Assembly (NCBI GenBank): GCA_020342115.1 | Contig: CP070841.1 | Span: forward strand, 3,421,531-3,485,530 | DNA length: 64,000 nucleotides | Direction of reading: 5' to 3' | Source: Spirochaetota bacterium | GTDB lineage: Bacteria; Spirochaetota; B62-G9; DRHN01 | Shown: positions 30,164 to 56,848 of the stretch, one piece after another | How positions within the stretch are numbered: the stretch's first letter is position 1 | Layout of the letters: every line of letters begins with the position of its first letter | Translations under genes and position numbers: made by a program | Notes under the pieces: generated by a model | The model's database searches: none | Told to the model about the DNA's origin: nothing | The model's input: the letters and a program-made list of their open reading frames with translations, nothing else

Positions 30164-30236
30164 GGGGGTGTAGCTCAGCCGGGAGAGCGCTTGCTTCGCA
30201 TGCAAGAGGTCGGCGGTTCGATCCCGCTCACCTCCA
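30164..30236 (+). tRNA. tRNA-Ala (anticodon CGC)
   Basis: Acceptor GGGGGTG/CACCTCC with G3:U70, anticodon stem CTTGC/GCAAG, loop TTCGCAT, T-loop GGTTCGATCC. Confidence 0.85.
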
Positions 30237-32842: not shown

Positions 32843-32925
32843 GGGTTCTAATAAACCAAATGCTTTTTTATCGATGATTGTCTCGGAAGAATAACTGAGA
32901 ACTAATTTCACCGATGTTATCTATA

Positions 32926-33010
32926 TTTAATTAAGGTTGCAGTATACTTAATTATCTTTCCATATTTGTAATGATAATTAAGTATACTGTCCCCATTAAC
33001 CGAACGATTA
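32926..33010 (+). repeat. Left copy of the about 85-nt direct repeat bracketing the 17-kb block
   Basis: The 71-nt core is 65/71 identical to 49905-49975 with no indels. It contains a perfect 16-bp hairpin CAGTATACTTAATTAT (32940-32955) / ATAATTAAGTATACTG (32974-32989). Confidence 0.85.
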
Positions 33011-33033
33011 TTTATTATCCACACACTCCATAT

Positions 33034-33070
33034 AAGTTTCTATTATTTTATAGAATAGAAACTTTTTATT
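33034..33070. terminator. Intrinsic terminator-like hairpin
   Basis: AAGTTTCTATT / AATAGAAACTT 11-bp stem with a 9-nt loop, followed by TTTATTT. Confidence 0.55.
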
Positions 33071-33260
33071 TAACTAAATCGATTAAGTGCTTTCCTGAAA
33101 CATTCCACAACCATCTCATAAAGATACTCCTCGATTTTAGTGAAAATTATCACAGATGTTTCAAAGACCGCAAAATGTACACATCGAGTAGTTTGTCAGG
33201 TTTTATTAACCCAAAAGTAAAATACAAAATCAGAAGATGTTTTTTATCATATTATTTTTG

Positions 33261-33311
33261 TTGACAAACTCAGTGAATATGATAGACTGAATAAGTTCAG
33301 TGAATGCATTC
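33261..33311 (+). promoter_or_regulatory. Regulon promoter/operator cassette 1 (importer operon)
   Basis: TTGACA-N16-TAGACT followed directly by GAATAAGTTC-AGT-GAATGCATTC (33289-33311). Confidence 0.7.
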
Positions 33312-33517
33312 TATTTATTTTAACAGCAGCGCTCAATCGGGATATAATCGGGATGCTGGGGCTTGAAGGTTATTTTCTATTGTTATTGCGGGATAATTTT
33401 TAATCAGCCCCAATGATCAGTAAGTTATATAATAAGAAAGGAGGTGGTCTGCAGCTTTGAAATTATGAATCATGTGCTAACAATTGCATATGACAATTTA
33501 AAAAAGGAGAGGAGAAA

Positions 33518-34768
33518 ATGAAACATTTAAAATTTTGCTTTTGTATAATCTTGTTAGTTTCTTTTGTGATCTTTCCTATCACCGCGTGGTCGGAATCAAA
33601 GGTTGAAAAAGATAAAATCGTCATCGGTGCGGCAAGACCTCTGTCAGGCCCATTAGCTCAAATCGGAGACTTTGCAATGGGACCAATTATGACAATGTGG
33701 GCCGAGGAAGTCAATGCCAGGGGTGGTATTAATGTAGCTGGCAAGAAACTACCTGTAGAGTTGCTCATATATGATGATACAAGTGATTTGGGCACCTCGA
33801 CGAGACTGATTGAAAAATTGATTCTAGAGGATAAGGTTGACTTCCTGTTTCCCAACTGCTCCACCGCTTTCCTCTATGCTTCCGCCCCACTGGCCAATAA
33901 ATACAAGTATGTATACCTGGGTGCCGAGGGTGGTTGTACAACTCTCACCGCTATGCTTCCTGAGCTGCCCTACGTGTTTGGTGTCTTGAACTACTCTGAT
34001 TACTACCAGATACCTGTCCTGGCTGACGTTCTTGTGGCTAAAGGCGTGAAGACAGCAGCGATAATCTACATCAATGACCTCCACGGTGTGGAGTATTATC
34101 ATTCATCGCTGAGTGAATTTATGAAGAAAGGCATTACTATAGTTATGGCTGAGGCAGTTCCGCCTTTCAGTGAGGATGTAGAGCTGGTATTGAAGGCGGC
34201 CAGGGATTCCGGGGCTGATGCCCTTTGTGGCTATGTGTATCCCCCCACAACCATGGCGGTTCTTGGTCAAGCAGCGGCTATTGGCTATAGTCCAAAGGCT
34301 ATGGTACTTGGCCCTGGGGTCAACTTCGAGTTTTTTAAAGGCATCTTTGGTCCCCAGATGTTGGAGGGTGTAATGGGTTTTGGCGCTTATAACTCCAAAT
34401 CCTCCCCTGAAATCGCCGATTTTATTGCCAGGTTCATCAAACGCTGGGAGCTGGGGGCAATGGATTGGTGGGGTGGCGCCTTCTATTTTGCAGGGCTGCA
34501 ATGTTTTGAGAAGGCTATAGAGAAGGCCGGTACCCTTGACAATACAAGAGTCAGGGATATAATGGCCAAGGAACATTTCGATACGATTCTGGGAGATACC
34601 TGGTTTGATATGACCGCCGGTGGTGAAGGCGGAGGACTTCTGGCGAAAGAATGCCATCCAGGGCAGGTTGGCCAGTGGCAAAATGGCGAATATGAGGTTG
34701 TAGGCCCAACGGATAAGGCTACCACAGACCAAGTTATCTACCCCAAGCCAGCGTGGCCAGCACCTTAA
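33518..34768 (+). CDS. Liv-type (Peripla_BP_6) ABC substrate-binding protein
   Basis: Signal peptide, 416 aa, LivK/LivJ-family look. Followed by livHMGF-like genes. Confidence 0.8.
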   Translation: MKHLKFCFCIILLVSFVIFPITAWSESKVEKDKIVIGAARPLSGPLAQIGDFAMGPIMTMWAEEVNARGGINVAGKKLPVELLIYDDTSDLGTSTRLIEKLILEDKVDFLFPNCSTAFLYASAPLANKYKYVYLGAEGGCTTLTAMLPELPYVFGVLNYSDYYQIPVLADVLVAKGVKTAAIIYINDLHGVEYYHSSLSEFMKKGITIVMAEAVPPFSEDVELVLKAARDSGADALCGYVYPPTTMAVLGQAAAIGYSPKAMVLGPGVNFEFFKGIFGPQMLEGVMGFGAYNSKSSPEIADFIARFIKRWELGAMDWWGGAFYFAGLQCFEKAIEKAGTLDNTRVRDIMAKEHFDTILGDTWFDMTAGGEGGGLLAKECHPGQVGQWQNGEYEVVGPTDKATTDQVIYPKPAWPAP

Positions 34769-34901
34769 TAAACACAGAAATGAGCAGGCTGTCCAAGTGT
34801 GTACAATGGCACCTGTGAAGAGAGTATGTTTTTTGGGAGGCTTTTCGCTGCGCATTCGTACAGCCTGCGCACATAATTGCCAGAGTTAGAAAGCTATATT
34901 T

Positions 34902-35774
34902 ATGAACTTAGTGACAGTCCTGGATATATTCATTGGCGGTGTGTTGATTGGTGGCATATATGCCCTGATCGCCATGGGGTTAAGCCTTCAGTACGGTGTT
35001 TCCCGGGTATTGAATGTGTCACATGGTGAATTTATTATGCTCGGGGCATTTGCCACCTGGGTGCTGTACACCTCACTTGGCATTAATCCGCTGATTTCTC
35101 TGGTCATTGTCGGTCCCATTATCTTTGTAATAGGTTATCTGCTTCACAGAACTTTGTTCAGGAGTCTATTTAAGTCATCACCATCATTACCCGCCTTTGA
35201 GGGAAGTTCCCTGTTAGCAACCTTTGGTATCCTCTACATCATTCAAAATATAGCCATAATAACCTGGGGTTCTTCTTCAAAGGGATACACATTTTTAGCG
35301 TCTCCGGTTAATCTGGGGGGGGCGATATTTTCCGCCAATCGCCTCCTAACCCTTGGATTTGCCATAGGTATAGGAGTAGCCTTCTATGTTTTTTTAGCCC
35401 GTACCCGAATGGGAAAAGCGATCAGGGCAGCGGCCCAGGACCCTGATGCTGCAGGGCTTATGGGAGTAAACATCAACCAGGTGCTGGCTTTATGCTTTGG
35501 CCTTGGCACCTTATTGACCGGTCTTGCCGGCGTACTTTACAGTATGTGCTTCTCTATTCAGGCAACTATGGGTCTGGGATTTACCATAATTGCTATCATC
35601 GTGGTTGTACTGGGAGGGTTGGGCAGTATTCCCGGTAGTTTTCTCGGTGGTTTTATACTGGGTATTATTGGCCAGATAGTAACATATTTTGAGCCGAGCT
35701 TATCGCTGGCTGCCTATTATATCATCTTCATACTTCTGCTCCTGGTAAAACCAACAGGTATTTTGGGAAAGTAG
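34902..35774 (+). CDS. Branched-chain-amino-acid-type ABC permease (LivH-like)
   Basis: 290 aa, polytopic, LivH-like sequence. Confidence 0.85.
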   Translation: MNLVTVLDIFIGGVLIGGIYALIAMGLSLQYGVSRVLNVSHGEFIMLGAFATWVLYTSLGINPLISLVIVGPIIFVIGYLLHRTLFRSLFKSSPSLPAFEGSSLLATFGILYIIQNIAIITWGSSSKGYTFLASPVNLGGAIFSANRLLTLGFAIGIGVAFYVFLARTRMGKAIRAAAQDPDAAGLMGVNINQVLALCFGLGTLLTGLAGVLYSMCFSIQATMGLGFTIIAIIVVVLGGLGSIPGSFLGGFILGIIGQIVTYFEPSLSLAAYYIIFILLLLVKPTGILGK

Positions 35775-35778
35775 AGAA

Positions 35779-36729
35779 ATGGACATTATAAAGTTTACCT
35801 CTAAAAAGTCGTTTTCAATAGGATTCATTGGCTTTGTTCTGGTCCTGTTGGCTGCTCTGCCCCTCTACGCAAAAGGTTATACTCCCATACTGCTGACAAG
35901 CATCTTTATGTATGTCATCCTTTCTGTAAGCTGGACTCTGTTTTCAGGTCCTACCGGCTACATGTCACTGGCAACGGCGGCCTTTTTCGGGGTCGGCATC
36001 TATACGGCGGCTTTTCTTGGGAAAACCTTGCCACTGCCTGTCTTTATCATTTCTGGCGGCCTGATCAGTTCAATAGTTGCTCTCCTTGTTGGCGCTTTGA
36101 CGCTGAGGCTGAGGGGTATCTATTTCGCTATCTTTACCTTTGGGCTCGTTATGCTCATCTCGAACCTTCTCCTGTTCTGGGAGCTTCATGCAATGGAAAC
36201 ACGTGGCCGGTTCGTTGTCATCGTAGATTACAATACTATTTATTATACAATGCTCATCATTTTTGTGGCGTTAATGCTTACGGCCTATTTTATAAGACGC
36301 TCTAAATTCGGATTGGCGCTGCAGAGTATCGGAGAAAACGAAGAAGCTGCGGCCCATATAGGCATAAATGTAACCCTGGTGAAGGTTGTCAACTTTGCCG
36401 TGAGCGCCTTCTTCATCGGAGCAGCTGGAGCAACCATAGCCACACGATGGACATATGTTGACCCGTACATCGCCTTTAATCCGCTCTTTTCTTTTTTGCC
36501 GGTCTTGATGGCTATATTTGGTGGCATGGGACAGCTTTATGGGCCAGTAATAGGCGCAGTTATTTTTGCCTATCTACAGGAGATTCTCATAACAAGGTTT
36601 GCCGAGTTATATATGCTTATTTTCGGTGTTATACTTGTGTTCTCTATACTGTATATACCCAATGGTCTGGTAGGCCTGATACAGAAGTGGAGAAAGGGAG
36701 GTCAAGCTGGGGAACATGCGAGTAATTGA
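35779..36729 (+). CDS. Branched-chain-amino-acid-type ABC permease (LivM-like)
   Basis: 316 aa, polytopic, LivM-like sequence. Confidence 0.85.
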   Translation: MDIIKFTSKKSFSIGFIGFVLVLLAALPLYAKGYTPILLTSIFMYVILSVSWTLFSGPTGYMSLATAAFFGVGIYTAAFLGKTLPLPVFIISGGLISSIVALLVGALTLRLRGIYFAIFTFGLVMLISNLLLFWELHAMETRGRFVVIVDYNTIYYTMLIIFVALMLTAYFIRRSKFGLALQSIGENEEAAAHIGINVTLVKVVNFAVSAFFIGAAGATIATRWTYVDPYIAFNPLFSFLPVLMAIFGGMGQLYGPVIGAVIFAYLQEILITRFAELYMLIFGVILVFSILYIPNGLVGLIQKWRKGGQAGEHASN

Positions 36730-37435
36730 AGGTGAGAGGGTGACCAAGTATTTCGGGGGCCTGGCTGCAGTATCCAATGTTGACTTCCATGTAGACAATG
36801 GTGAGATCGTTGGTCTGATCGGCCCCAACGGGGCAGGTAAGACGACACTGTTCAATTTGATATCTGCTGCCATTGCTCTTAAATCGGGGGTCATACGGTT
36901 CAAAGGTGAGAAGATCAGCGGTTTAAAACCGTATCAAATCTGCAGGATGGGAGTATCGAGGACGTTTCAATCTGTTAAAGTATTCTCCAACTTATCCGTT
37001 CTCCAGAATGTAATGCTGGGATCGTTGTATGGAGCTCCAGCTGGCATGTCTGACGCAGATGCCAACAGCGAGGCTACAGAGCTGCTGGAGTTTGTGGGGC
37101 TTTCAAATGTGAGTATGATCCCTGCAAAAGACTTGACCCTGGCTAACCAGTAGCGCCTTGAAGTAGCCAGGGCGTTAGCCACAAAGCCGGAACTGTTGTT
37201 GCTTGATGAATTGATGGCTGGATTGAATCACACTGAAGTGGCTCAGGCTATGGAGCTTGTTAAAAAGATTCAGGATAAGGGAATTACCATCTTCATGGTT
37301 GAGCATGTCATGAAAGCAATTATGAGTATATGTGATCGAATTATGGTGCTCCATCATGGTGAGAAGATTGCTGAAGGAACTCCACAGGAGATCGCTGCCA
37401 GCAAAAAGGTCATTGAGGTTTATTTAGGAGAGTAA
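36716..37435 (+). pseudogene. LivG-like ABC ATPase interrupted by one in-frame TAG (37151-37153)
   Basis: Walker A GPNGAGKTT lies in ORF 36716-37153. Walker B LLLLDE lies in ORF 37196-37435. Both ORFs are in the same frame. The stop falls inside the signature region: LTLANQ-stop-RLEVARAL, against the recalled canonical L(S/A)YGQQ(R/K)RLEIARAL. Confidence 0.75.
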
Positions 37436-37439
37436 ACTC

Positions 37440-38144
37440 ATGCTGGAAGTATGCAATATCGATACTTTTTACGGTAAGATTCAGGCATTGTGGGGTGTTT
37501 CATTAAGAATCGATGAAGCGGAAATAGTCGCCCTGGTAGGAGCCAACGGAGCGGGTAAAACGACACTTCTCAACACTATATCCGGTTTGCTATGTCCCGC
37601 TTCAGGCAGTGCAACGTTTCTTGACAAGAGGATAGATGGGCTAACGCCTCATTACATTGCGGAGCTCGGTATTTCTCATATACCGGAGGGCAGAAGACTG
37701 TTTCCCGTTATGTCCGTGCGTGAAAATTTGGAGATGGGTGCCTATACCTACCACGCATGGAAAAGGAAAGAAGAAACGCTTGAGGAGGTTTATCGGGTTT
37801 TTCCATTGCTGAAAGAAAGAGAGGGACAATTAGCGAGAACATTGAGCGGTGGCGAGCAGCAAATGCTGGCTATGGGCCGGGGATTGATGTCAAGGCCAAG
37901 ACTGTGCATGTTCGATGAGCCATCGTCTGGCCTTGCGCCAAGGTTAGTATTAGAAGTTTTTAAAGTCATAAAGACCCTGCGTGAGCAGGGGATTACCATT
38001 TTATTGATTGAGCAGAATGTTAAACGCACACTCGAGATAGCTGACAGGGCATACGTACTGGAAAACGGTCGGATCGTCTCGGAGGGGAAAAGCAGTGAGC
38101 TTCTCCAGAACAATCACATTAAGAAGGCCTATTTGGGGCTATAG
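37440..38144 (+). CDS. LivF-like ABC ATPase
   Basis: GANGAGKTT, LSGGEQQ, MFDEPS. 234 aa. Confidence 0.9.
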   Translation: MLEVCNIDTFYGKIQALWGVSLRIDEAEIVALVGANGAGKTTLLNTISGLLCPASGSATFLDKRIDGLTPHYIAELGISHIPEGRRLFPVMSVRENLEMGAYTYHAWKRKEETLEEVYRVFPLLKEREGQLARTLSGGEQQMLAMGRGLMSRPRLCMFDEPSSGLAPRLVLEVFKVIKTLREQGITILLIEQNVKRTLEIADRAYVLENGRIVSEGKSSELLQNNHIKKAYLGL

Positions 38145-38192
38145 ATCGAGGCTACTGACATTGTATAACTATAAATTATCTTCAGGTTTATT

Positions 38193-38822
38193 TTACTTCA
38201 TACTATCGATGATAATCTCAGTGGCAAGTCTGGCTCCTATCCCTGGCAGAAGACCGCACTTTTCAAAACCTTTCGCATGAGCGAATGCTTCCATATTCTC
38301 CTGGCTGGCTGCTGGATCCATGTAACGTCCGAATACAACATTTTCATGGATGTCAGGGCATACCACAGACCCTACTGTTTCTTCGAATCGGGGCATAAAC
38401 TTCCGGGCAGCCATTATGGTCTGGCCTGTTGCTTCGTAATCAAGCAGGTCATTACTGCCAAAATAAAGACCAAGGGCAATGAGAGCTCCTGTTACTCCTC
38501 CGCACATCCAGCCTGTTCCACCGAAACCTGGAAATGGAGACAGAGCTTTTATGATATCCATAGTACCCATACCAAACTCTTCAAGCAGGGCTAGTGCCGT
38601 GCTCTTTGCGCAATTGCGGGCAAGAAAGTTATATTCCTCAGCTCTCAGTTGAACGCGGTTTAATATCTGCTGCTTATTGGCCAGAATATCATCCCGGTTC
38701 AATGTTTTTCTGGAGATCCCGTTCGCAGCCAATTTTTTTAACCTGGTCTCGATTGCCTTTGTGTCCCACGTTCTATCTGCAAGTTTCTGCACTTTTTCCT
38801 TCAGCCGGTCGTAGTCTGCCAT
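38193..38822 (-). CDS. C_GCAxxG_C_C family protein (putative redox-active)
   Basis: NCAKSTALAL, MCGGVTGALIALG and later Cys residues fit my recollection of this family. 209 aa. Confidence 0.6.
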   Translation of the reverse strand: MADYDRLKEKVQKLADRTWDTKAIETRLKKLAANGISRKTLNRDDILANKQQILNRVQLRAEEYNFLARNCAKSTALALLEEFGMGTMDIIKALSPFPGFGGTGWMCGGVTGALIALGLYFGSNDLLDYEATGQTIMAARKFMPRFEETVGSVVCPDIHENVVFGRYMDPAASQENMEAFAHAKGFEKCGLLPGIGARLATEIIIDSMK

Positions 38823-38962
38823 CAGTTATCTCCTTATTTCATTGAACTGCAAAAGATTTATAAAGAGTACTATAGATTTAAAATTTAAATACCGATAATC
38901 GATACTCTTTATAATTTATCTGCCTTCCAGGTATTTATCTTTGCAGAAGACCCCAAAAAGTA

Positions 38963-39208
38963 TTATCCGCCGCTAATGGCCTGAAATATATTCACAGTGA
39001 TACCATGTTTTATTTTATCAGGCTTTTTCAGTACTCGGCCCTCCATAATTGCAACTGCGTTTTGGGATTCTGATAGTTCAAGAAGAGTGAGGAGGTCTTG
39101 GACCGTTGCCCCATCTGGAATCTCTACTTCCATACCCTGCAGATGCTGATAATCTGAGAATCTGCAGCTCAGAGTACCATATAGTTTGACCTTTAGCTTC
39201 ATCGCCAA
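38963..39208 (-). CDS. MoaD/ThiS-like ubiquitin-fold sulfur-carrier protein
   Basis: 81 aa ending in GG. Lies immediately downstream of aor. Confidence 0.7.
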   Translation of the reverse strand: MAMKLKVKLYGTLSCRFSDYQHLQGMEVEIPDGATVQDLLTLLELSESQNAVAIMEGRVLKKPDKIKHGITVNIFQAISGG

Positions 39209-39214
39209 TCCCTG

Positions 39215-40936
39215 TTAAAAATCAAAGGTACTGTCAATCTCCTCATCGCTTATAACAAAAACTTTATTATGTGGGGGAAGAGGTTCTTCGTAGAAGAATT
39301 TGGGCAATCGATCGTCCTTTTTCGTAAATCCGGCTTTCCTGTTGAATTCTCTCTCTGCTTTAAGAACCCGGATACCCATATCGTGTGGAAAATCGTCCGG
39401 TCCAAGCCGAATGCCTGTTTTAGCACTGATTACATTCCGAAAGGCCTCTTCACCTTCGGGACTTAATAGAGCTACATTCGCCATAAAGCACTGTCCCATG
39501 GTGTCAAAGGCTGCCATTGCTATTTGAAGGTACCTGGAAGTCTCAACCTGCCCTTCCACTTTTAATGGATCGAGCTTTTGTTCCAGATATTCACCGACCA
39601 CGTTACCGGCTGTATGATCCGCACCCATTGGCGATGTTGAAAACGTAACGCCATGACCCAGCATTGCCCTTGGATCATAACCGGCAATGCTCTGGCCCTT
39701 GATCACAGGAACATGCGTGTTGTTGAAATACCTGCCTGTGGCAGCTGGCCCGTTTCCGAGAATTGTACCGATTTCTGTGCAGCTGCCAATCTCCTCTACC
39801 AACTTTATGGCTGCTTTTCCGTCACCGAACGCCCTATACCCTGCATCCATTGCAACGGCAATGGCTACCCCTGTGCTCATGGTATCAACTCCAATATCAT
39901 CACACAGGTTATCTAGTCGTGCGATCGTGTCAAGATCGGCGATGGCTGTCATGCCACCCATCGCCCAGATGGTCTCATACTCCAAAGAACTGGTTATATA
40001 CTTTCCCCCTTTATCTACGAATACATTTGAGCAGTGAATGATGCACTGAGAACAACCCGTGTGTGTTGTTTTTCCACCACGCTTGCGGATGAGATCGGCC
40101 ATGACTTCTCCACTTATCTTTTCCCATCCGTCCAGCTCGCCCTTTTTAGCATTGTAACAGGGGAAGGCGCCCATGGTATTGACTGGAGCCACAAGACCGG
40201 CGGTGCCGAGTTTGGGCATAACTTCACTGTTCATATGATCATCTTTTACGATTTTAACAACCTTTTTTACCGCTTCTCTGAACGCTTCAGGATCTGCTAT
40301 GGTATCGGCGCTCTTTCCGCGTTGATCCACGATCAAGGCCTTGAGCCCCTTGGATCCCATAACCGCTCCCAGGCCCCCTCGTGCTGCAGCGCGGCAGGGA
40401 TGGCCGTCGACATCTGATGATTGTATGGAAGCCGCAGTCAGCATGTATTCGCCGGCCGGTCCGATACAGAGCACTGAGTTTTTTTCTCCATATGTCTTGC
40501 GGATCTTTTCAGTACACCTGTAAGTTCGCATTCCCCTGTATTCTTGGGCTGAAACAAGGCTTGCGTTTCCTTTCTCGTCAATCCTGAGGAGGTTGAGGTC
40601 TCCTTGCTTTGACTGTCCTTCAACGACAATCGCAGTAATTCCCAGTCGGGCCAGAGCCCTGGAAGCAGTGCCGCCTGCATTGCTCTCCTTGATCGTCCCT
40701 GTCAGAGGGCTTTTGGACCCTACTGAAATTCTGCTGGTATTTGGGAGTGGTGTTCCGCTTAAGAATCCCGGGGCAAAAATGAGCTTGTTTTCAGGTCCCA
40801 GCGGATCACATTTTGGAGGCACCTCTCTGTTGATCAATGTTGATGTAAGTCCTCTGCCTCCAAGTTCTTTGTAATCCTCTGGTACGCTCTCGGCTGTAAC
40901 GGTTTTTTTGTGCATGTTCACCCTTATCAGCTTCAT
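39215..40936 (-). CDS. aor: Tungsten-type aldehyde:ferredoxin oxidoreductase family protein
   Basis: AOR N-domain (MKLIRVN...GGRGLTS...SPLTG) and CSQCIIHCSN Fe-S motif. ATG 40936 follows AAGGAG. Confidence 0.85.
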   Translation of the reverse strand: MKLIRVNMHKKTVTAESVPEDYKELGGRGLTSTLINREVPPKCDPLGPENKLIFAPGFLSGTPLPNTSRISVGSKSPLTGTIKESNAGGTASRALARLGITAIVVEGQSKQGDLNLLRIDEKGNASLVSAQEYRGMRTYRCTEKIRKTYGEKNSVLCIGPAGEYMLTAASIQSSDVDGHPCRAAARGGLGAVMGSKGLKALIVDQRGKSADTIADPEAFREAVKKVVKIVKDDHMNSEVMPKLGTAGLVAPVNTMGAFPCYNAKKGELDGWEKISGEVMADLIRKRGGKTTHTGCSQCIIHCSNVFVDKGGKYITSSLEYETIWAMGGMTAIADLDTIARLDNLCDDIGVDTMSTGVAIAVAMDAGYRAFGDGKAAIKLVEEIGSCTEIGTILGNGPAATGRYFNNTHVPVIKGQSIAGYDPRAMLGHGVTFSTSPMGADHTAGNVVGEYLEQKLDPLKVEGQVETSRYLQIAMAAFDTMGQCFMANVALLSPEGEEAFRNVISAKTGIRLGPDDFPHDMGIRVLKAEREFNRKAGFTKKDDRLPKFFYEEPLPPHNKVFVISDEEIDSTFDF

Positions 40937-40971
40937 GTTGATCTCCTTGAAACACATAGTATAGTCTTCAG

Positions 40972-42069: not shown

Positions 42070-42129
42070 CTTTCCCCCCTGAGTTTGAAGATTTAACTAA
42101 CAAGAGCATTGGAAAGCTGCTGAAAAACC

Positions 42130-42183
42130 GAATATGTTCAGTGAATATATTCATACTTTATCATCAGATTTGTTTTTTATCAA
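42130..42183 (-). promoter_or_regulatory. Regulon promoter/operator cassette 2 (adh-aor-moaD operon, minus strand)
   Basis: Minus strand reads TTGATA-N17-TAAAGT, then AT-GAATATATTC-ACT-GAACATATTC. The operator is at + coordinates 42130-42152. Confidence 0.6.
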
Positions 42184-42193
42184 ATTGTTTTTG

Positions 42194-42244
42194 TTGACAA
42201 GGCGAATCAATCTGTTAAACTGAATATGTTCAATGAATGCATTC
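42194..42244 (+). promoter_or_regulatory. Regulon promoter/operator cassette 3 (FAD/FeS operon)
   Basis: TTGACA-N16-TAAACT followed directly by GAATATGTTC-AAT-GAATGCATTC (42222-42244). Confidence 0.7.
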
Positions 42245-42281
42245 TATTTAAGACATTACGGTGCATGTACGGGAGCCATGT

Positions 42282-43748
42282 ATGGATAAAAAGATGGCGC
42301 AGTTGATGGAGATCGTTGGAAAAACGAATGTCTTTGATAATCCTCAAATGGGTAAGGATTTTTCACCTGTTTCAGATCATGTAACATCCATAAAACCCCG
42401 CTATATGGTCAAGCCAAAAGATGTAAATGAGGTTCAAAAGATAGTTATCTGGGCGAACAAAACACATACCCCGCTCATACCGTTGAGCTCAGGAGGGCCG
42501 CATTTTCGTGGTGATACATCTCCCACAGTACATGGTGCGGTTGTCGTGGATTTGAGCGGAATGAAGCGAATTCTAAAGATTGACAGAAGAAACAGATTGG
42601 TCTGCTTAGAGCCAGGGGTAACTTACACCACGCTTCTACCTGAACTTCAGAAAGAAGGTCTTCGAATTGCGATGCCGATTCTTCCCAGGAGCAATAAATC
42701 AGTACTAACAAGCCTCCTGGAAAGAGAACCTGTGCTGTCCCCTAAATATCAGTGGAATTTACTTGAACCGTTGCGGAGCCTGGAAATTGTGTGGGGTAAT
42801 GGGGATAAGATATGGAGTGGAAGCGGAGTTTTTCGCGGTGAGAAGGAGGAAGATTGGAAGGAGGGGCTTGTACCTGTGTGGGGGCCTGGGCCGATGCAGC
42901 TCGATTACTATAAATTCGTTTCTGCAGCGCAGGGCTGTATGGGTATTGTCACATGGGCATCCGTAAAATGCGAAGTTTTTCCTGAATCTCGAAAACTTTT
43001 CTTTATTCAGGCACAGAAGCTCGATGATGTAATCGAGTTTACCTATAAGCTCCTCAAGTTCAGACTCGGTGATGAGCTCTTTATAATAAACAATACCTGC
43101 CTGGGATATATTATTGCCGATAAGCCGGAGGAGGCCAGTGCCCTTAAAGCCACCCTTCCTGCATGGGCAGTGGTCTTGGGTATAACAGGCGGACAGATTT
43201 TACCCGGAGAAAAGGTTGAGGCTCAGGAAAGCGATATCAGCGACATCGCCCGGCAATTCGGGCTGGAGATGGTTCCAGAGATTGAGAACTGCTCAGGCCG
43301 GGAACTGCTGGAGCTTCTTTTAAAACCTTCTGAAGAACCTTACTGGAAACTAAGGTACAAGGGAGGGGCGCAGGAAATATTTTTTCTGACAACACTTGAC
43401 AGAACGCCGGGCTATGTTGAGACCATGCATTCAGCCGCTGATGAAAGTCAGTACCCGATCGGGGACATTGGAGTATACATCCAGCCGGTACATCAGGGAG
43501 TATGCTGTCATCTCGAGTTCGTTCTCCCTGTTGATCTTATGAGTCCAGCAGAGAGCTCTCAAGGTCAGAAGTTATTCCGTGATGCGAGCCACAGGTTTTT
43601 CAACCAGGGTGCATACTTCTCACGGCCGTACGGGATCTGGGCTGATATGGTCTATCAGAAGGATGCAAAGACCATGATGGTAATGCAAAAGGTGAAGGAG
43701 ATATTCGATCAAAATAACGTGATGAATCCCGGTAAACTCTGTTTTTAG
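42282..43748 (+). CDS. FAD-binding (PCMH/FAD_binding_4 type) oxidoreductase
   Basis: The N-terminal FAD_binding_4-like region resembles the GlcD / D-lactate dehydrogenase / VAO superfamily. ATG 42282 follows GGGAG. Confidence 0.7.
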   Translation: MDKKMAQLMEIVGKTNVFDNPQMGKDFSPVSDHVTSIKPRYMVKPKDVNEVQKIVIWANKTHTPLIPLSSGGPHFRGDTSPTVHGAVVVDLSGMKRILKIDRRNRLVCLEPGVTYTTLLPELQKEGLRIAMPILPRSNKSVLTSLLEREPVLSPKYQWNLLEPLRSLEIVWGNGDKIWSGSGVFRGEKEEDWKEGLVPVWGPGPMQLDYYKFVSAAQGCMGIVTWASVKCEVFPESRKLFFIQAQKLDDVIEFTYKLLKFRLGDELFIINNTCLGYIIADKPEEASALKATLPAWAVVLGITGGQILPGEKVEAQESDISDIARQFGLEMVPEIENCSGRELLELLLKPSEEPYWKLRYKGGAQEIFFLTTLDRTPGYVETMHSAADESQYPIGDIGVYIQPVHQGVCCHLEFVLPVDLMSPAESSQGQKLFRDASHRFFNQGAYFSRPYGIWADMVYQKDAKTMMVMQKVKEIFDQNNVMNPGKLCF

Positions 43749-43775
43749 CAGTACGGGTTGCAAAGGAGACTATAC

Positions 43776-45047
43776 ATGGCACTGGAAGATTTTGCAGCTG
43801 AAATGGACAGATGCAGTCAGTGTTCCTACTGTAAGTGGATTCCGTTCGATCATATAAAGAGCTGGAGATATGCTAAAAATTGCCCGAGTGTTTCATATAA
43901 TAACTTCAACAGTTATTCGGCACGCGGAAGATATGCAGTAGCACGCTCTCTCCTGAAGGGGCAAAGCGGGTATTCTGATAAAGTGCGTGACATAGTCTAT
44001 AAATGCATGACCTGCGGGTCATGTGATGTAAGCTGCAAGGTCTGCCGCTTCAATCTGGAGCCTCTGGATATGGTGCGTGAGCTCAAATTCAAGTTAGTCG
44101 AGGAAGGCCATGTCCTTGATGAACACCAGACAATAGTTGAGAGTCTGGACAAAGAACACAATACCATGCTTCAGCCTAAAACCGGAAGGGGAGAATGGGC
44201 TGAAGGGCTTGATGTGCCGCGTCTATTTTCAAAAGAGGCAGAGATCGTTTTTCATGCAGGCTGCAGGTTCAGCTATGACAGGGATCTATGGAATTCTGTG
44301 AGATCAGCGGTAACGATTTTAAAGAATGCAGGTATGGATGTCGGTATCATGGGAGAAAGGGAGATGTGCTGCGGTGGCAGGATATACTCGATGGGCTACA
44401 GAAACGAGTTTGTCAGGTTTGCAGAGTCAAATATAAAAGCATGGGCAAAAGCCGGTGTGAGGATGGTGGTAACCTCATGTGCAGATGGTTATCATGCATT
44501 CAAGCGCCTTTATCCACGATTGGGTTTTCAGGTTCAAGTGATGCATGTTGTGGAGTTACTTAATCATCTGATAAATGAAGGAAGGCTCGTATTACGTTCC
44601 GAAATTCCAATGTCCGTTACCTATCATGACCCTTGCCATCTTGGAAGGCAGGGGGAACCGTATGTACCGTGGGATGGTGTCGAAAAGAAAATAAAGAGCC
44701 AGATAATCGTCTATGAACCTAAAAGGCCCAGGTATAACGGAGCCTGGGGAATCTATGATCAGCCGAGAGAAATTCTGAAAAAGATTCCTGGCCTTCAGCT
44801 GCTGGAGATGGAGAGAGCGAGGGAATACAGCTGGTGCTGTGGAGCAGGAGGAGGAGTTAGGGAAGCCTATCCCGAGTTCTCGATGTGGACTGCCGCTGAG
44901 AGAATCGCAGAAGCAAAGGCTACGGGTGCAGAAGCATTGGTAACTGCCTGCTCATGGTGTGAGAGGAATTTCATGGACGCCATCATTGCACAGAGAGATG
45001 CAATGAAAGTCTATGACATTGTCGAGCTAGTTCAGGAAGCGATATAG
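43776..45047 (+). CDS. Fe-S protein with two 4Fe-4S motifs and two CCG domains (GlcF/HdrD/GlpC-like)
   Basis: CSQCSYC...CP and CMTCGSCDVSC, plus MCCGG and SWCCGAGGG. ATG 43776 follows AAGGAG. Confidence 0.8.
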   Translation: MALEDFAAEMDRCSQCSYCKWIPFDHIKSWRYAKNCPSVSYNNFNSYSARGRYAVARSLLKGQSGYSDKVRDIVYKCMTCGSCDVSCKVCRFNLEPLDMVRELKFKLVEEGHVLDEHQTIVESLDKEHNTMLQPKTGRGEWAEGLDVPRLFSKEAEIVFHAGCRFSYDRDLWNSVRSAVTILKNAGMDVGIMGEREMCCGGRIYSMGYRNEFVRFAESNIKAWAKAGVRMVVTSCADGYHAFKRLYPRLGFQVQVMHVVELLNHLINEGRLVLRSEIPMSVTYHDPCHLGRQGEPYVPWDGVEKKIKSQIIVYEPKRPRYNGAWGIYDQPREILKKIPGLQLLEMERAREYSWCCGAGGGVREAYPEFSMWTAAERIAEAKATGAEALVTACSWCERNFMDAIIAQRDAMKVYDIVELVQEAI

Positions 45048-45063
45048 ACAGCAGATAGAAAAG

Positions 45064-46719
45064 ATGACGATGCCTAAGAACATATATAAGGCTTTAGAGG
45101 GCATTGTAGGGCCGGAGAATATATCCGATGATCCAGCGGTGTTGGATTCATACAGATACTCACTTGCTCATACAGCAATTCATCTGGGTCCTTTTTTCGA
45201 CACATTTACGCCCAGAGGATCAGCGGTTCTTTTACCCGGGAGTACTGAGGAAGTCCAGGCAATTGTGAAATTATGCAATAAATACAGGATAAAGTTTAAA
45301 GCCTCGAGCACTTTCTGGTCTGCGCAGGGGTATCCTTCGGAGGACAATACTATCCAGCTGGACATGAGAAGGATGGATCAAATACTCGAGATAGATGAGA
45401 AAAATATGTTTGCTGTGATCGAGCCTGGAGTGATAGGGGCCACACTTCAAGCAGAGGCTATGAAGGTGGGTCTTAATACGCATATTCCGGGAGCCGGCTG
45501 CAGCTGTTCCACACTGGCAGGCGCTACATCGTACTTCGGATCCGGGCCTAGCAATCTGTACGGCGGCTGGCACTACGATAACCTGCTTGGAGTAGAGTGG
45601 GTCATGCCCACAGGTGAAATCTTGAGAACAGGGTCGTTGGGTGCAGGCTGCGGCTGGTTCTGCGGTGAGGGACCGGGCCCAAGCATGAAAGGTGTGGCCA
45701 GGGGATTTATTGGCTCAAAGGGAGCAATGGGAGTATATACAAAATGTGCCATAAAGCTGTTTGCCTGGCCGGGGCCCACAACACTTCCTGTTGAAGGGAT
45801 CGTACCGGCTTACAAGACTTCACTACCGGATAATTTCAAGGCATATACAGTGGCTTTCCCTTCCTGGAAGTCATGGGCCGATGCGGTGTATACTATATGG
45901 GATACAGGCGTAGGATATATCGCTCATCGTCAGTACAGTATGTTCGGCAGGGATTTAAAATTTGCAATGATCAAAATACTCACCGACCCGACTAAAACAT
46001 TGGGCGATCTTGAAGAGATTCTTGATGATCCGGAAGTGCAAAAAATTACAGAGGAATCCAAGCGAGATTTTCAGATCGTTCTGGCCGGTATGACAAAACG
46101 CGATATCGAGTGGCAGGATAAAGCCCTGGACGAAATATTGTCCAGAACAGGAGGCTGGAAGGTCGAGGCCATGAATGAGCCTGAGATAAACAAATGGATG
46201 CTTCTTTACCTGATCAGGCTGGGACATAAAAACCTGAACCTTGTTTTCGGAGGGTCGTATGATGGTTGTTTTGGTCTGCTCGGCTCTGCGGACTTTGGAA
46301 CATCTCATGTCGAGGAGGCAGCTGAGTTCAAGAAAAGATGGGAGAAGCGCGGAGCTGTGGTTGAAGCTGGAGGAGACTGCATGATGGGGCCTATCGGCGG
46401 CCAGGGCGGAGGGGGCACATGTCTTTGGGAAAATTTCACATGCTTCGATCCGTATGATAGAGATTCAATTGAAGGAACCCTTGAATTTTTCGATGCATGC
46501 ACCGAGCTTGGTCTTGAAAGAGGTTGGGGTGTAGGTATGGAGAAGTGGAACTCTCAGGCCAGGGGGCCGGATGGCAGGATTGCTCCGAAAGAGGAGCGTG
46601 ACAGAATTCACCTGTCTGCTCCGCAGCCGGATATTTTTCGGTACCAGCATAAGATAAGGAAAGCCTTTAATCCTAACGATCTTGGTGATGCGTATTATGA
46701 AACACTGGATGATTCATAG
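45064..46719 (+). CDS. FAD-binding (PCMH/FAD_binding_4 type) oxidoreductase, 551 aa
   Basis: The N-terminus (LEGIVGPENISDDPAVLDSY...) is typical of FAD-linked oxidases. The long C-terminal substrate domain is unassigned. Confidence 0.7.
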   Translation: MTMPKNIYKALEGIVGPENISDDPAVLDSYRYSLAHTAIHLGPFFDTFTPRGSAVLLPGSTEEVQAIVKLCNKYRIKFKASSTFWSAQGYPSEDNTIQLDMRRMDQILEIDEKNMFAVIEPGVIGATLQAEAMKVGLNTHIPGAGCSCSTLAGATSYFGSGPSNLYGGWHYDNLLGVEWVMPTGEILRTGSLGAGCGWFCGEGPGPSMKGVARGFIGSKGAMGVYTKCAIKLFAWPGPTTLPVEGIVPAYKTSLPDNFKAYTVAFPSWKSWADAVYTIWDTGVGYIAHRQYSMFGRDLKFAMIKILTDPTKTLGDLEEILDDPEVQKITEESKRDFQIVLAGMTKRDIEWQDKALDEILSRTGGWKVEAMNEPEINKWMLLYLIRLGHKNLNLVFGGSYDGCFGLLGSADFGTSHVEEAAEFKKRWEKRGAVVEAGGDCMMGPIGGQGGGGTCLWENFTCFDPYDRDSIEGTLEFFDACTELGLERGWGVGMEKWNSQARGPDGRIAPKEERDRIHLSAPQPDIFRYQHKIRKAFNPNDLGDAYYETLDDS

Positions 46720-46751
46720 TACCACGAGCTTTCCTGGACGGAAGATTAATT

Positions 46752-46785
46752 AGTTTCTGGTGAATAATTCACCAGAAACTTTGTT
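46752..46785 (+). terminator. Intrinsic terminator
   Basis: 29-nt perfect palindrome AGTTTCTGGTGAATAATTCACCAGAAACT followed by TTGTT. Confidence 0.6.
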
Positions 46786-46963
46786 AGTTCTTGGTGGTTA
46801 CATTAAATGCATATGACAAAACCAATAAAAAAAGCATTGTTTGATTTCCTTTGATTAATTCTAATTAATCACCAACAACTAATTAAGAGGATAGACGGAC
46901 ATCCCATCTTTTACATGAGTGCATACTCTCTCATATAGTTATTACTGCATTTTCAAACTGCGG

Positions 46964-47551
46964 TCAGCTTCTGAGGGTTGAAACAAGAATCCCAATATAT
47001 TTATGCATTGTCGCTTCAAGATCGTAGCGGCCTTCGTGTAAACTCCACTCGAATACAATACCACGGGCCATAACGAATAAAAATCTTGCGAGCTCTTCCG
47101 GGTCTGTATCCATCCTGATTTCTTTCTTTTCCTGACCCTTGCGTATCAGATCCTGCAGCAGCGTCAGCATGGGCCTGCTTTTTTTAATGAAGAATTTTAT
47201 TTTCGGATTGAAGAGCTGCTGGGTCATTTCAACACCGCTGGCCACATTGAATTTGGCATAATGGTCAAAATATTCAACAATCTGATCTGGAACACTTGCC
47301 TTATTTAAACTGGAAATTACCTCTGTTGAGAAATATTCGTCAGCTTTGCGGAAAATCTCAGCGAGAATATCGTTTTTTGATTTGAAGTAATGATAGAGAG
47401 CTCCAACCGAAACATTCGCCTTTTTGCTTATATCTACAATTGTAAGTTTCTCGAATCCCTTTTTGTCCATGATATCGATAGCGGCATTATAAATCCTGTT
47501 CTTTGTTTCTATGGCCTTCTCCTGCCGCCTGGTAAGGGGCTTCTTTCCCAT
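46964..47551 (-). CDS. TetR/AcrR-family transcriptional regulator
   Basis: N-terminal HTH IYNAAIDIMDKKGFEKLTIVDISKKANVSVGALYHYFKSK. 195 aa. Divergent from the corrinoid operon. Confidence 0.9.
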   Translation of the reverse strand: MGKKPLTRRQEKAIETKNRIYNAAIDIMDKKGFEKLTIVDISKKANVSVGALYHYFKSKNDILAEIFRKADEYFSTEVISSLNKASVPDQIVEYFDHYAKFNVASGVEMTQQLFNPKIKFFIKKSRPMLTLLQDLIRKGQEKKEIRMDTDPEELARFLFVMARGIVFEWSLHEGRYDLEATMHKYIGILVSTLRS

Positions 47552-47762
47552 ATCTGATCCAGCGATTAAATAATCTTTTAATAAAAAATCAGTATAACAT
47601 AATTACAGGAGATTGTAAAGTTGCGGTTTTGGTACCGCCTTGCGAGTGATGAGATAACTATTACCTTATAATGGGAATTATTTATTCTATGGTCATAAAC
47701 GGCCGGTTTGCGTATGGTTGGTTTATGGTATGCTATTATAGTTGGTTCTCTTAAATTGTTTA

Positions 47763-47813
47763 TTGACAATTAGGACAAATTTGATAAGCTGAATATATTC
47801 AGTGAATGCATTC
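47763..47813 (+). promoter_or_regulatory. Regulon promoter/operator cassette 4 (corrinoid operon)
   Basis: TTGACA-N16-TAAGCT followed directly by GAATATATTC-AGT-GAATGCATTC (47791-47813), then TATTAGGGGG (RBS) and the ATG. Confidence 0.7.
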
Positions 47814-47825
47814 TATTAGGGGGTT

Positions 47826-48458
47826 ATGGTTATGCCAAGAGAATTGGTAAATTTATTATCGAATCTGAAAGAACCGGAATCGATTGATTATGTCGAGAAG
47901 TCTCTGGGAAGGGGAGTTGACCCTCTACAACTGTTAGAGCAAGCTAGGGAAGGTATGAAGATCGTTGGTGAGAAGTATGCCGATGAAAAATATTTTATTC
48001 CAGACCTGATCTTTTCCGGTGAAATCCTGAAGGGTGTAGTCGATAAATTAAAACCACATCTCAAGAAGAAAGAAGAAACAAGCCCTCTGGGAAAGGTGGT
48101 GTTAGGAACAGTGGCTGGCGATATCCATGATATAGGAAAAAACCTCGTGGTCTTTATGCTTGATGCCAGCGGTTTTGAGGTTTTGGACCTTGGCGTCGAT
48201 GTGCCGGTAGAAAAATTTGTGAATGCAATTAAGGAGACCGGCAGCAGGGTGATTGGACTTAGTGGATTCCTGACCCTGGCCTTCCAGTCGATGAAGCAGA
48301 CAGTCGATGCGATCAAGGAGGCCGGGCTGCATGACGTCAAAATCATGATCGGAGGCGGCCAGATTGACGAAAGGGTCAGGAGTTTCAGCGGTGCGGACGC
48401 TTATGGAAAAGATGCAATGGAGGCTGTTAAACTGGTAAAAGGATGGATAGGAGGGTAA
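47826..48458 (+). CDS. Cobalamin-binding corrinoid protein (MtaC/MtbC-like)
   Basis: 210 aa. B12-binding DxHxxG motif GDIHDIGKNLV, preceded by a helical cap domain. Confidence 0.85.
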   Translation: MVMPRELVNLLSNLKEPESIDYVEKSLGRGVDPLQLLEQAREGMKIVGEKYADEKYFIPDLIFSGEILKGVVDKLKPHLKKKEETSPLGKVVLGTVAGDIHDIGKNLVVFMLDASGFEVLDLGVDVPVEKFVNAIKETGSRVIGLSGFLTLAFQSMKQTVDAIKEAGLHDVKIMIGGGQIDERVRSFSGADAYGKDAMEAVKLVKGWIGG

Positions 48459-48462
48459 GAAA

Positions 48463-49815
48463 ATGGAAGAGAAAAAGGCAGAGTTATCAGCAGAGCAGAA
48501 GCAGGATGAGCTGTTTCAAAGATGGCTTGAACCCAAAGATCCTGAGGGAAATAATCTGACATTTAAGAATTCCGGCGCAGAGAAATTATACAGGGAAAGA
48601 ATAACCAGGATAAAAGATGCCATTCAATTGAAGAAATTACCTGACAGAGTGCCGGTCTGCCCTCTCCCCAGTATGTTTCCTGCTTTTTATTCCGGAATTA
48701 GCCTTCAGGAGGCAATGTATGACTACGACAAATGCTGTGCGGCATGGAAAAAATATGTTCTGGATTTTGAGCCGGATGCACATATGGGCTGTGCAGCCCC
48801 TGGCTCCGGGAAATTCTTTGAGATTCTAGACTACAAATTGTACGCATGGCCAGGTCACGGTGTTTCTCCGGAACACAGCTACCAGTGCATTGAAGGAGAG
48901 TACATGATGGCGGATGAGTATGATGAGCTGATACATGATCCATCTCACTTCTTCAATAATATTTACCTGCCGCGAGTATTCGGAAGCTTGGACCCTTTCA
49001 AGATGCTTCCATTTCTTCCCGGTATATTGGAAATGTATGGAGTTGCTTTTAACTTTATACCTTACGGGCTGCCCCCTGTTCAAACGGCCCTCAAGGCTCT
49101 TATGGAAGCCGGGAGTGAAGCACTGAAATGGGCAGGAGCAGTGGGCGGTTTCGATGGTGAGATGGCAGCATTGGGATTCCCGCAGATCATTGGCGGGTTT
49201 ACCAAGGCACCGTTTGACACACTCGGCGATACACTCAGAGGCACAAAAGGGATAATGCTGGATATGTACAGGCAGCCGGATAAGCTCCTTCAGGCTCTGG
49301 AGGTTATAACGCCTCTCATGATCAAGATGGGAGTGGGTGCGGCAAAAATGAACGGAAAACCCATAATATTCATGCCTCTGCATAAAGGAGCTGACGGTTT
49401 CCTCTCCGATGATCAGTTTAAGAAATTCTACTGGCCTACTTTCAGAAAGGTCATTGTGGGTCTAATCGAGGAGGGATGCGTGCCCTTTCCGGCAGCCGAA
49501 GGTGGATACAACTCTCGGCTTTCCGTCATCAAGGACGTACCAAAAGGAAAGACTGTGTGGATGTTTGATAAGACAGATATGGCCAACGCCAAGGAGATAT
49601 TGGGCAATACTGCCTGCATCCTCGGCAACATGCCTCTCTCTATCTTAAACCTGGGTACACCCGATGATGTGAGAGAATATGCCAGGAAACTTATCGATGA
49701 TGCGGCTGAAGGCGGTGGTTACATAATGGCCAATGGTGCGTTCTTTGATAATGTCAAGGCGGAAAATCTTAAGGCTATGGTGGACTTTACCAAGGAGTAT
49801 GGTGTTTATAAGTAG
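48463..49815 (+). CDS. Uroporphyrinogen-decarboxylase-family (MtaA/CmuA-like) methyltransferase, 450 aa
   Basis: URO-D-like look and tight coupling (4-nt gap) to the corrinoid protein. About 100 aa longer than the MtaA length I recall (about 340 aa). The family assignment is from memory and needs HMM confirmation. Confidence 0.6.
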   Translation: MEEKKAELSAEQKQDELFQRWLEPKDPEGNNLTFKNSGAEKLYRERITRIKDAIQLKKLPDRVPVCPLPSMFPAFYSGISLQEAMYDYDKCCAAWKKYVLDFEPDAHMGCAAPGSGKFFEILDYKLYAWPGHGVSPEHSYQCIEGEYMMADEYDELIHDPSHFFNNIYLPRVFGSLDPFKMLPFLPGILEMYGVAFNFIPYGLPPVQTALKALMEAGSEALKWAGAVGGFDGEMAALGFPQIIGGFTKAPFDTLGDTLRGTKGIMLDMYRQPDKLLQALEVITPLMIKMGVGAAKMNGKPIIFMPLHKGADGFLSDDQFKKFYWPTFRKVIVGLIEEGCVPFPAAEGGYNSRLSVIKDVPKGKTVWMFDKTDMANAKEILGNTACILGNMPLSILNLGTPDDVREYARKLIDDAAEGGGYIMANGAFFDNVKAENLKAMVDFTKEYGVYK

Positions 49816-49904
49816 AAACTATTTATGTCGCTAGTGGCCATACAATATGTTTGCAGTGCTTTACTCACTAACAGCTCACAAATTAGTTTCCAGTATTTTC
49901 TACG

Positions 49905-49989
49905 TTTAATTAAGGTTACAGTATACTTAATTATTGTTACATATTTGTAATGAGAATTAGGTATACTGTCCCCATAATACTAACGATAA
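49905..49989 (+). repeat. Right copy of the about 85-nt direct repeat bracketing the 17-kb block
   Basis: See the left copy. The hairpin arms here carry two mismatches (AGAATTAGGTATACTG). Confidence 0.85.
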
Positions 49990-50039
49990 ATTGATCTCCA
50001 TTAGCTCTGATGAGTAGTTTCTATGTGCATACAAACTAA

Positions 50040-50360
50040 TTATTCAACCAAGTCGACACCGTCTATCCATGTTCCTCCCAGATATTCGGTTTTAATGAGG
50101 CGGGAGAGCGCTGTGAGCGCTTCGCGCAGGTGAGCCATACACTGTTCATGAAGATTCTTCCCGATCTCTGTTATTGTGGTTACGGTCTTCTCAAAGTCCC
50201 TGTCTTTCTGCTCCGAGAGTATCGCGAGTGACAGGATAAGCTGTTTCACGACAAGTTTTGTATTTATTACAAGCGGTGCTTTTTCGATCTGCTCTTCAAT
50301 ATCTTTTTCAATATTCGAAGTCATATTATTTGTCTCCTGAGTCAGTGTATCATAGTACAT
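50040..50360 (-). CDS. Small helical hypothetical protein divergent from copA
   Basis: 94-106 aa depending on the start (MTSNIEK at 50324). Contains HEQCMAH. Not CsoR-like by the motifs I recall. Confidence 0.45.
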   Translation of the reverse strand: MYYDTLTQETNNMTSNIEKDIEEQIEKAPLVINTKLVVKQLILSLAILSEQKDRDFEKTVTTITEIGKNLHEQCMAHLREALTALSRLIKTEYLGGTWIDGVDLVE

Positions 50361-50398: not shown

Positions 50399-50447
50399 TT
50401 GTCTCTTTAGCGTTAAGAGATTATATTGTATACCATACCGGGGTATA
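50399..50447 (+). promoter_or_regulatory. copA promoter (TTGTCT-N17-TATATT) with overlapping CsoR-type-like inverted repeat TATACC-N7-GGTATA
   Basis: 50429-50447 reads TATACCATACCGGGGTATA. The ATACC...GGGGTAT shape recalls copper-sensing CsoR operators. It ends 5 nt before the copA ATG. Confidence 0.45.
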
Positions 50448-50452
50448 GTAAT

Positions 50453-56786: not shown

Positions 56787-56848
56787 TTGGGTAATTTCTT
56801 CTATAGAACAAAAAGCAATTAACCTTATTATATAATTGAATCAAGGCT

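Follow-up and report, generated by a model that had tools for sequence, protein, structure and literature searches.

REPINs consist of an inverted pair of repetitive extragenic palindromic (REP) units of ~25 nt and a spacer, and they form a hairpin of ~26 bp in single-stranded DNA (ssDNA) or RNA. In enterobacteria, REPs serve as join-points of tandem duplications. The REPIN, i.e. a REP doublet forming a hairpin, was defined together with its REP-associated tyrosine transposase (RAYT) in Pseudomonas fluorescens SBW25 (Bertels & Rainey 2011, PMC3116915; PMC3337134; PMC5581495), and REPs that flank a Y1 transposase gene are the defining signature of RAYTs and REPINs (PMC3116915, PMC3337134). The REPs of Pseudomonas are markers of older core regions and avoid those of atypical character; a role as recombination substrates was proposed for enterobacterial REPs and bacterial interspersed mosaic elements (BIMEs) (PMC3390384). 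Insertion sequences (IS) of the IS200/IS605 type carry subterminal hairpins, which are recognised by the Y1 transposase TnpA (PMC6006769). Here, we analysed a stretch of 64,000 nt (“the window”, positions 3421531-3485530 of the single-contig 3.53-Mb genome of a Spirochaetota bacterium, termed G000, with 41.5% GC), in which a TetR regulon of 17 kb lies between two hairpin-forming repeats, L and R. We have little doubt that L and R are REPINs of a dispersed REP family. The regulon is a horizontally acquired or relocated island, which is inserted with an OmpA-like gene on its left and a small gene followed by copA on its right. Positions refer to the window unless they are given as genome positions.

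Over the core from which the repeats were first recognised, L (32926-32996) and R (49905-49975) are identical at 65 of 71 positions without gaps, and the ungapped similarity reaches 87 of 105 positions between 32917-33021 and 49896-50000. They are direct repeats on one strand and start 84 and 90 nt past the stop codons, at 32842 and 49815, of plus-strand genes. The stem of L is a perfect 16-bp helix formed by CAGTATACTTAATTAT (32940-32955) and, after 18 nt, its complement at 32974-32989, while the stem of R has two mismatches, both in the 3′ arm. The identity, orientation, stop-codon distances and hairpins reported in a preliminary description of the window were thus all reproduced. Folding as ssDNA yields z values of −6.5 and −5.7 for the two copies in comparison with shuffled sequences. 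Against R1, a covariance model, the left copy (32917-33021, plus strand) scores 86.9 bits and the right copy (49896-50000, plus strand) 91.7 bits. The left REP arm of L, AATTAAGGTTGCAGTATACTTAATTAT, spans about 32927-32955 and is separated by a spacer of 18 nt (32956-32973) from the right arm (32974-33000; AATGGGGACAGTATACTTAATTAT on the minus strand), after which a weakly conserved 3′ tail follows. An Rfam scan of the window returned only tRNAs and no known RNA family at the repeats.

L and R share not only their orientation, but also the asymmetry of their left and right arms. They are mutual nearest relatives, with 88% identity over the core, and the next copy reaches at most 80%. Beyond the family core, the 3′ tails resemble each other with weak significance (15 of 500 shuffles), and the resemblance of the 5′ tails was not significant in the shuffle test. 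The 5′ extension is also found in a third copy of the L/R subfamily (genome position 1237977), so that the tails do not prove a segmental duplication.

Copies related to L and R are dispersed over the genome. The 24-nt motif AATTAAGGTTGCAGTATACTTAAT has 34 matches at five or fewer mismatches, 33 of them intergenic, compared with one match of the reversed control motif. Full hairpins were detected with BLAST, an nhmmer profile and R1 at ~17 loci, where the spacers between the inverted arms range from 18 nt to about 120 nt. Another ~15 matches are single arms of the motif, and the family totals about 28 loci, with identities of 50-88% among the copies. In an alignment of 12 copies, 79% of the cells of a 26-pair stem are paired, compared with 32-45% when the partners are slid, and in nine of the 26 pairs both positions have changed. 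The score for covariation amounts to 0.197, versus 0.104 in shuffled alignments (none of 500 reached the observed value) and 0.03-0.10 in the slid controls. Every full hairpin adjoins at least one gene 3′ end, and spacers between convergent genes are frequent, whereas spacers between divergent genes hold single arms only. The genes beside the copies are functionally unrelated. Genes with orthologues in relatives account for 15 of the 46 genes beside REPs and for 14 of 23 random genes, a marginal difference (P = 0.038) that is driven by two arrays; the gene calls of the scripted analyses are crude open reading frame (ORF) calls. The motif map contains no inverted arm pair at a distance of 0.7-3 kb, such as the ends of a full-length IS would form if the repeats were miniature inverted-repeat transposable elements (MITEs) of a DDE-type IS.

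At genome positions 146.6-157.1 kb and 1441.2-1446.0 kb, accessory genes on one strand form arrays in which REPINs separate the genes. The arrays comprise paralogous pairs (two amidohydrolases, two acyltransferases and two unknown 185-aa genes) as well as genes for a PemK toxin, a GNAT protein, a methyltransferase and a permease. Among the array genes that were tested, only the permease gene has an orthologue of at least 50% identity in either of two related genomes, G006 or G012. At genome positions 3113670, 3115576 and 3119012, three like-oriented single REP arms have a common extended tail, TTTTAAAGCCGnCGCTnCCTGG, and may represent a distinct sub-element.

The family was also found in other genera of the same bacterial family, at 11 or more loci in genome G016 and at some loci in G009, G007 and G008. 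The consensus of these relatives, AATTATGGGGACAgctCACTTAATT ... AATTAAGTGagcTGTCCCCATAATT, has loops of 7 to about 60 nt and covarying stems, and the right arm of L, in its minus-strand reading, is the same REP. Both G016 and G007 contain a Y1_Tnp (RAYT) gene with such REPs ~110 nt upstream, although the contigs of these two metagenome-assembled genomes (MAGs) end within that gene. The orthologous RAYT genes of G006 and G002 have GGGGACAnnATACTT on both sides, inverted in G006 and all in one orientation in G002, and the right arm of L fits this pattern. The four RAYT orthologues of G016, G007, G006 and G002 are 63-72% identical to one another. That of G002 (C39:5075-5680) has an internal TAG codon and is encoded ~17 kb away from the G002 copy of the 17-kb block on the same contig.

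In contrast, no orthologue of the G016-type RAYT was found in G000, which contains only three Y1 genes, with 25-34% identity. Two of these, at genome positions 74064-74945 and 1548643-1549545, are classic RAYT genes, each with inverted REPs of another family, TTAAGGGGACAGGCGTGTACTTTTGAGTAC and AAGTGGGGGACGGAGGATGAATTCATGAC, for each of which BLAST finds ~14 or more further matches; no flanking repeat was found for the third (919955-921010). The RAYT of the G016 type is thus lost from G000, and the ~28 loci are an ageing, orphaned population, in agreement with the low copy number, the divergence and the many single arms. Six elements of G016, G009 and G007 lie between genes that are also adjacent in G000, where the element is absent, showing that the element comes and goes alone and that the family is mobile over evolutionary time. 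With about 28 loci, covarying stems and RAYT-flanking REPs in four genera, the earlier suggestion of a dispersed REP- or MITE-like repeat was right about the nature of L and R. The kind of element is already known, and what is added here is a previously undescribed REP/REPIN family of a poorly studied Spirochaetota lineage.

The resemblance to the Pseudomonas REPINs comprises inverted conserved units with a less conserved spacer, compensatory changes, extragenic positions and decayed-looking single arms. As in the Pseudomonas REPIN-RAYT systems, REPs of the same type flank a single-copy Y1 gene, here in the genomes of relatives, and the system has persisted vertically across genera. In contrast to Pseudomonas, there are about 28 loci instead of hundreds, the host belongs to the Spirochaetota and the cognate RAYT is missing from G000. 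The arms are AT-rich with a GGGGACAG head and lack the GTAG or CGTC tag of the Pseudomonas REPs, and the copies are clustered and over-represented beside genes without orthologues in relatives.

The inserted block of 16.9 kb (33022-49895, not assigned to one strand), which is characterised by Pfam matches, by its absence from the site in relatives and by its composition, encodes the liv transporter genes livK-H-M-G-F, a C_GCAxxG protein, a tungsten-type aldehyde:ferredoxin oxidoreductase (AOR), a zinc-dependent alcohol dehydrogenase (ADH), FAD/CCG/FAD dehydrogenase genes, a TetR regulator, a corrinoid protein and an MtaA/URO-D-like (uroporphyrinogen decarboxylase-like) methyltransferase. Its 14 ORFs contain no integrase or transposase domain according to Pfam, as had been noticed before. 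Three promoter/operator cassettes were located on the plus strand at 33238-33317, 42171-42250 and 47740-47819. At up to five mismatches in the whole genome, the operator GTTCAGTGAATGCATTCTATTTA occurs at 33295, 42228 and 47797, all between L and R, and only once more, with five mismatches, about 2 Mb away; apart from this match, the reported confinement of the operator to the bracketed region holds. The GC content of the block is 46.0%, compared with 41.5% for the genome, corresponding to the 99.5th percentile of genome windows of the same size, and its tetranucleotide distance is at the 99th percentile; a comparison of both profiles had been proposed earlier. The 216 nt between L and the first cassette are unique in the genome, and of the two junction spacers, 33022-33237 and 49816-49895, only the second has a further match, a weak one of 51 nt. 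Most spacers within the block are promoter/operator regions or intra-operon, and a convergent spacer of 245 nt (46719-46964) is devoid of a REPIN. The livG-like ATPase gene (36716-37440) contains an in-frame TAA at about 37151-37153 (…ANQ*RLEVARAL…); G006 encodes Lys at this position. As a consequence, the ABC importer of the regulon may be defective in G000, unless the TAA is a sequencing error or a read-through site.

The genome collection available for comparison contained no member of the same genus. The left neighbour of the block, a gene with FecR, Ig-like and OmpA domains (30377-32842, plus strand), is 50-66% identical across the bacterial family, and its orthologues are present throughout the family. 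The right neighbour is a gene of 106 aa (50040-50360, minus strand), followed by a copA-type P-type ATPase gene (50426-52942, plus strand), which is part of the conserved right flank. The three relatives G006, G002 and G011 have a Mur ligase gene, a 315-aa gene, the OmpA-like gene, the 106-aa gene and copA in this succession, so that the 106-aa gene directly follows the OmpA-like gene, at a distance of 30 to about 650 nt. The empty site that had been predicted from the window, with the OmpA-like gene, the 50040-50360 gene and copA in succession, thus exists in all three genomes, although without the single repeat copy that was predicted with it. No hairpin was found at these empty sites, and R1 has no match in G002 and G011 and one weak match in G006; consequently, the state before the insertion cannot be read from them.

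The whole block, from livK to the URO-D-like methyltransferase gene, is present in the same order at other loci in G006 and G002, with the same promoter/operator 5′ of livK. The DNA homology to G006 extends from ~33253 in the promoter, i.e. within the first cassette, at which the homology to the blocks of G006 and G002 begins, to the methyltransferase stop at 49817, and reaches up to 91% in livK. The proteins of the block are 73-92% identical to those of G006, compared with 64-74% for seven conserved flanking genes. Hence, the empty site in three genomes, the occurrence of the block elsewhere in two of them, its atypical composition and its higher identity in comparison with the flanks identify the block as an insertion. 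The junction spacer sequences 33022-33237 and 49816-49895 were not found at the block borders in G006 and G002. On contig C44 of G006, the block and an aldehyde dehydrogenase gene (19.9 kb in total) are located 3′ of apbE between direct repeats of 341 bp with 98.5% identity (C44:19660-19997 and 39570-39910), which duplicate the 3′ end of apbE. This arrangement looks like a Campbell-type single-crossover scar that formed without an integrase. An integrase-less block bracketed by direct repeats is thus found in two genera, and the sequences of the repeats are different. A related cluster (corrinoid protein, methyltransferase, liv transporter, ADH, AOR and C_GCAxxG genes) was observed on MAG contigs assigned to Chloroflexi and Thermodesulfobacteriota, with identities of 66-73%, and of 51-73% at the protein level for the genes listed, which points to a cross-phylum transfer of a metabolic module or to mis-binning.

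REP loci were compared with the gene order in relatives. Of the eight REP-bearing junctions that could be assessed between G000 and G006, six coincide with an indel or a break in synteny (L, R and the loci at 2130, 1238, 1273 and 1643 kb of the genome; those at 2774 and 2959 kb are conserved), in contrast to 23% of the neighbouring junctions without REPs, an enrichment with P of about 0.003, or about 0.009 when L and R are counted once, in which an ascertainment bias is contained because the G006 comparison loci were picked for holding REPs. The third member of the L/R subfamily, at genome position 1237977, is situated at a rearrangement breakpoint between G000 and G006. On contig C4 of G006, the DegP orthologue is directly followed by orthologues of G000 158852-167022; the G000 region compared is 1236407-1238104, and the other side of this breakpoint adjoins the REPIN array at 146-157 kb. 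At genome positions 1641669-1643533, a 566-aa transporter-like gene is present that is absent from the syntenic site on contig C5 of G006, and in G000 a pair of inverted REP arms, spaced by about 120 nt, lies at its 3′ border. Elements of G016 that seemed to lie at breakpoints turned out to be an artefact of distal blastx matches, and the adjacency count shows no excess for them. Like the enterobacterial REPs and BIMEs, the family consists of short dispersed palindromes that represent portable homology, here at junctions of rearrangements and indels; unlike the tandem duplications joined by REP/BIME, a foreign operon set of 17 kb is inserted here, and recombination would be the presumed route.

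We propose, with a probability of about 0.45 for the full statement including the integration route, that the island entered by recombination at a REPIN. The incoming DNA, which was probably circular, would have carried one REPIN, and a homologous, Campbell-type crossover would have taken place between it and a REPIN already present 3′ of the OmpA-like gene. Each joint would then be left with a single REPIN, both in one orientation, and the repeats would be joints because they offered portable homology, not because they were att sites of a dedicated integrase. This proposal is supported by the mutual nearest kinship of L and R and by their common orientation and arm asymmetry, and also by the Campbell-type repeat in G006, the enrichment of REP junctions at breaks and the position of the third subfamily member at a breakpoint. 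In addition to the bias mentioned above, several observations weigh against it. L and R have diverged at 12-17% of their positions, with 16 nt as the longest stretch of identity, and recombination of the RecA type would be inefficient between copies as diverged as these, unless the divergence arose later. The blocks of G006 and G002 have no REPIN at their borders, so that the donor would have been an unsampled REPIN-bearing lineage or the block would have moved within the genome. The family is clustered (18 of the 28 loci have a neighbour within 20 kb, compared with 7.4 expected, P = 0.0004), and other pairs of nearest relatives are also neighbours, i.e. 1442007/1443760 with about 88% identity at a distance of 1.75 kb, and c150/c156. 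Nearby pairs of nearest relatives could therefore have been generated by local REPIN duplication, without any role in integration. Lastly, the elements of G016, G009, G008 and G007 are not enriched at synteny breaks relative to G000 (six syntenic, none broken and 11 without orthologue, versus 58, 12 and 109, respectively).

Several of these observations would be expected if the island had come by another way and REPINs had settled at its joints later, by local duplication that was driven by a RAYT or by recombination, which we regard as a serious possibility, albeit short of an even chance. The outer joints would then have been the only permissive non-coding spots nearby, and the bracketing would be a by-product. 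Besides the strong clustering, the neighbouring pairs of nearest relatives, the REPIN-free blocks of the relatives and the missing excess at breaks for the elements of G016, G009, G008 and G007, such a history would agree with the preference of REPINs for gene 3′ ends and convergent spacers, as the inner spacers of the block are mostly regulatory or intra-operon. However, two REPINs would have had to settle precisely at the joints and with one common orientation, and the convergent spacer at 46719-46964 within the block was left empty. Moreover, any transposition must be old because G000 lacks the cognate RAYT, and the enrichment of G000 REP junctions at breaks and indels versus G006 weighs against it as well. 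The hairpins could also be mainly RNA elements of 3′ UTRs, which terminate transcription of the OmpA-like and methyltransferase genes or stabilise their mRNA, with a likeness that reflects a common function. Their positions 84-90 nt past the stop codons on the coding strand and their strong folds are compatible with this, and a passage of PMC3733652 reports effects of REPs on mRNA stability and termination. We nevertheless regard it as improbable: the terminator scan called no terminator-like site at L or R, the AT-rich stem lacks a T-run (a U-run in the RNA), the positions beside orthologous genes are not conserved across genera, and many copies are single arms or lie between convergent genes. 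A role in the 3′ UTR would rather be a side effect of a REPIN than an alternative origin.

A more specialised role of the hairpins would be that of HUH/Y1 (RAYT) ends, which would make the block a giant non-autonomous transposon bounded by REPINs, now or in the past, that moves as a single-stranded circle. The direct orientation of the hairpins recalls the subterminal hairpins of IS200/IS605, a parallel drawn in PMC3116915, and the linkage of the repeat to an enzyme of the same superfamily, the RAYT association of this REP type and the lack of an integrase in the block would fit as well. Yet the segment is about 10 times longer than an IS200/IS605 element, has no tnpA, and neither cleavage nor target motifs that are conserved were identified at its outer borders; the cognate RAYT is absent from G000 and the block copies of G006 and G002 have no such ends. 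The peel-and-paste excision of IS608 drops steeply with element length, and 17 kb is far beyond the known range. Taken together, transposon ends are very unlikely. Islands bordered by attL and attR likewise show terminal direct repeats, an atypical composition and a site that is empty in relatives, and the one-orientation, REPIN-delimited arrays at 146-157 kb and 1441-1446 kb superficially resemble the cassette arrays of integrons with their attC sites. However, L and R belong to a genome-wide family instead of being private to the island, they are only 83-88% identical, and the adjacent tRNA gene (30164-30236) is not the joint. The genome has four matches to PF00589, none within 19 kb of a REP locus, and the order of GTTGC at the 5′ side and GCAAC at the 3′ side is the reverse of R″ (RYYYAAC) ... 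R′ (GTTRRRY), with a misfit at the degenerate positions. The identity as integron or att sites was rejected, as neither the block nor the surroundings of the arrays contain a recombinase and the core order is not that of attC, and we give it hardly any credence.

The cassette interpretation of the preliminary description consequently stands in part: the insertion lies exactly between the two copies and has a foreign composition, but the repeats were not left by a site-specific element as att scars, although they may still be recombination joints. Two outcomes that had been named as speaking against a cassette were partly observed, since relatives carry the block without the repeats and copies occur in unrelated intergenic regions, the latter amounting to about 28 loci and not to dozens of full copies. 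A wider version of the recombination proposal would be that the REPINs of this lineage are systematic docking or exchange sites for modules without integrases, via RecA or RAYT. Modules bounded by REPINs in the same orientation would exit and re-enter at other REPINs, and both the arrays and the 17-kb regulon would have been placed in this way, analogous to integron attC or pdif modules, but built on REP hairpins. We regard this version as unlikely on the present comparisons.

The analysis separates two matters, the REP/REPIN family itself and a real, horizontally moved regulon of 17 kb with a documented empty site. Together they provide a natural example of an integrase-less metabolic island that lies exactly between two copies of a dispersed hairpin repeat, while a different direct repeat brackets this island in another genus. 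A full-text literature search on genomic islands flanked by REPs found no paper describing such a case, and the best match concerned generic repeats. If the joints were made by REPIN recombination, REPINs would be a general entry route for operon-sized DNA without dedicated mobility genes. In any case, direct repeats at the borders of an island should be compared with the whole genome before they are named att sites. Outside the bracketed region, the repeat search revealed further hairpin repeat families around a downstream gene at 56683-58832 of the window.

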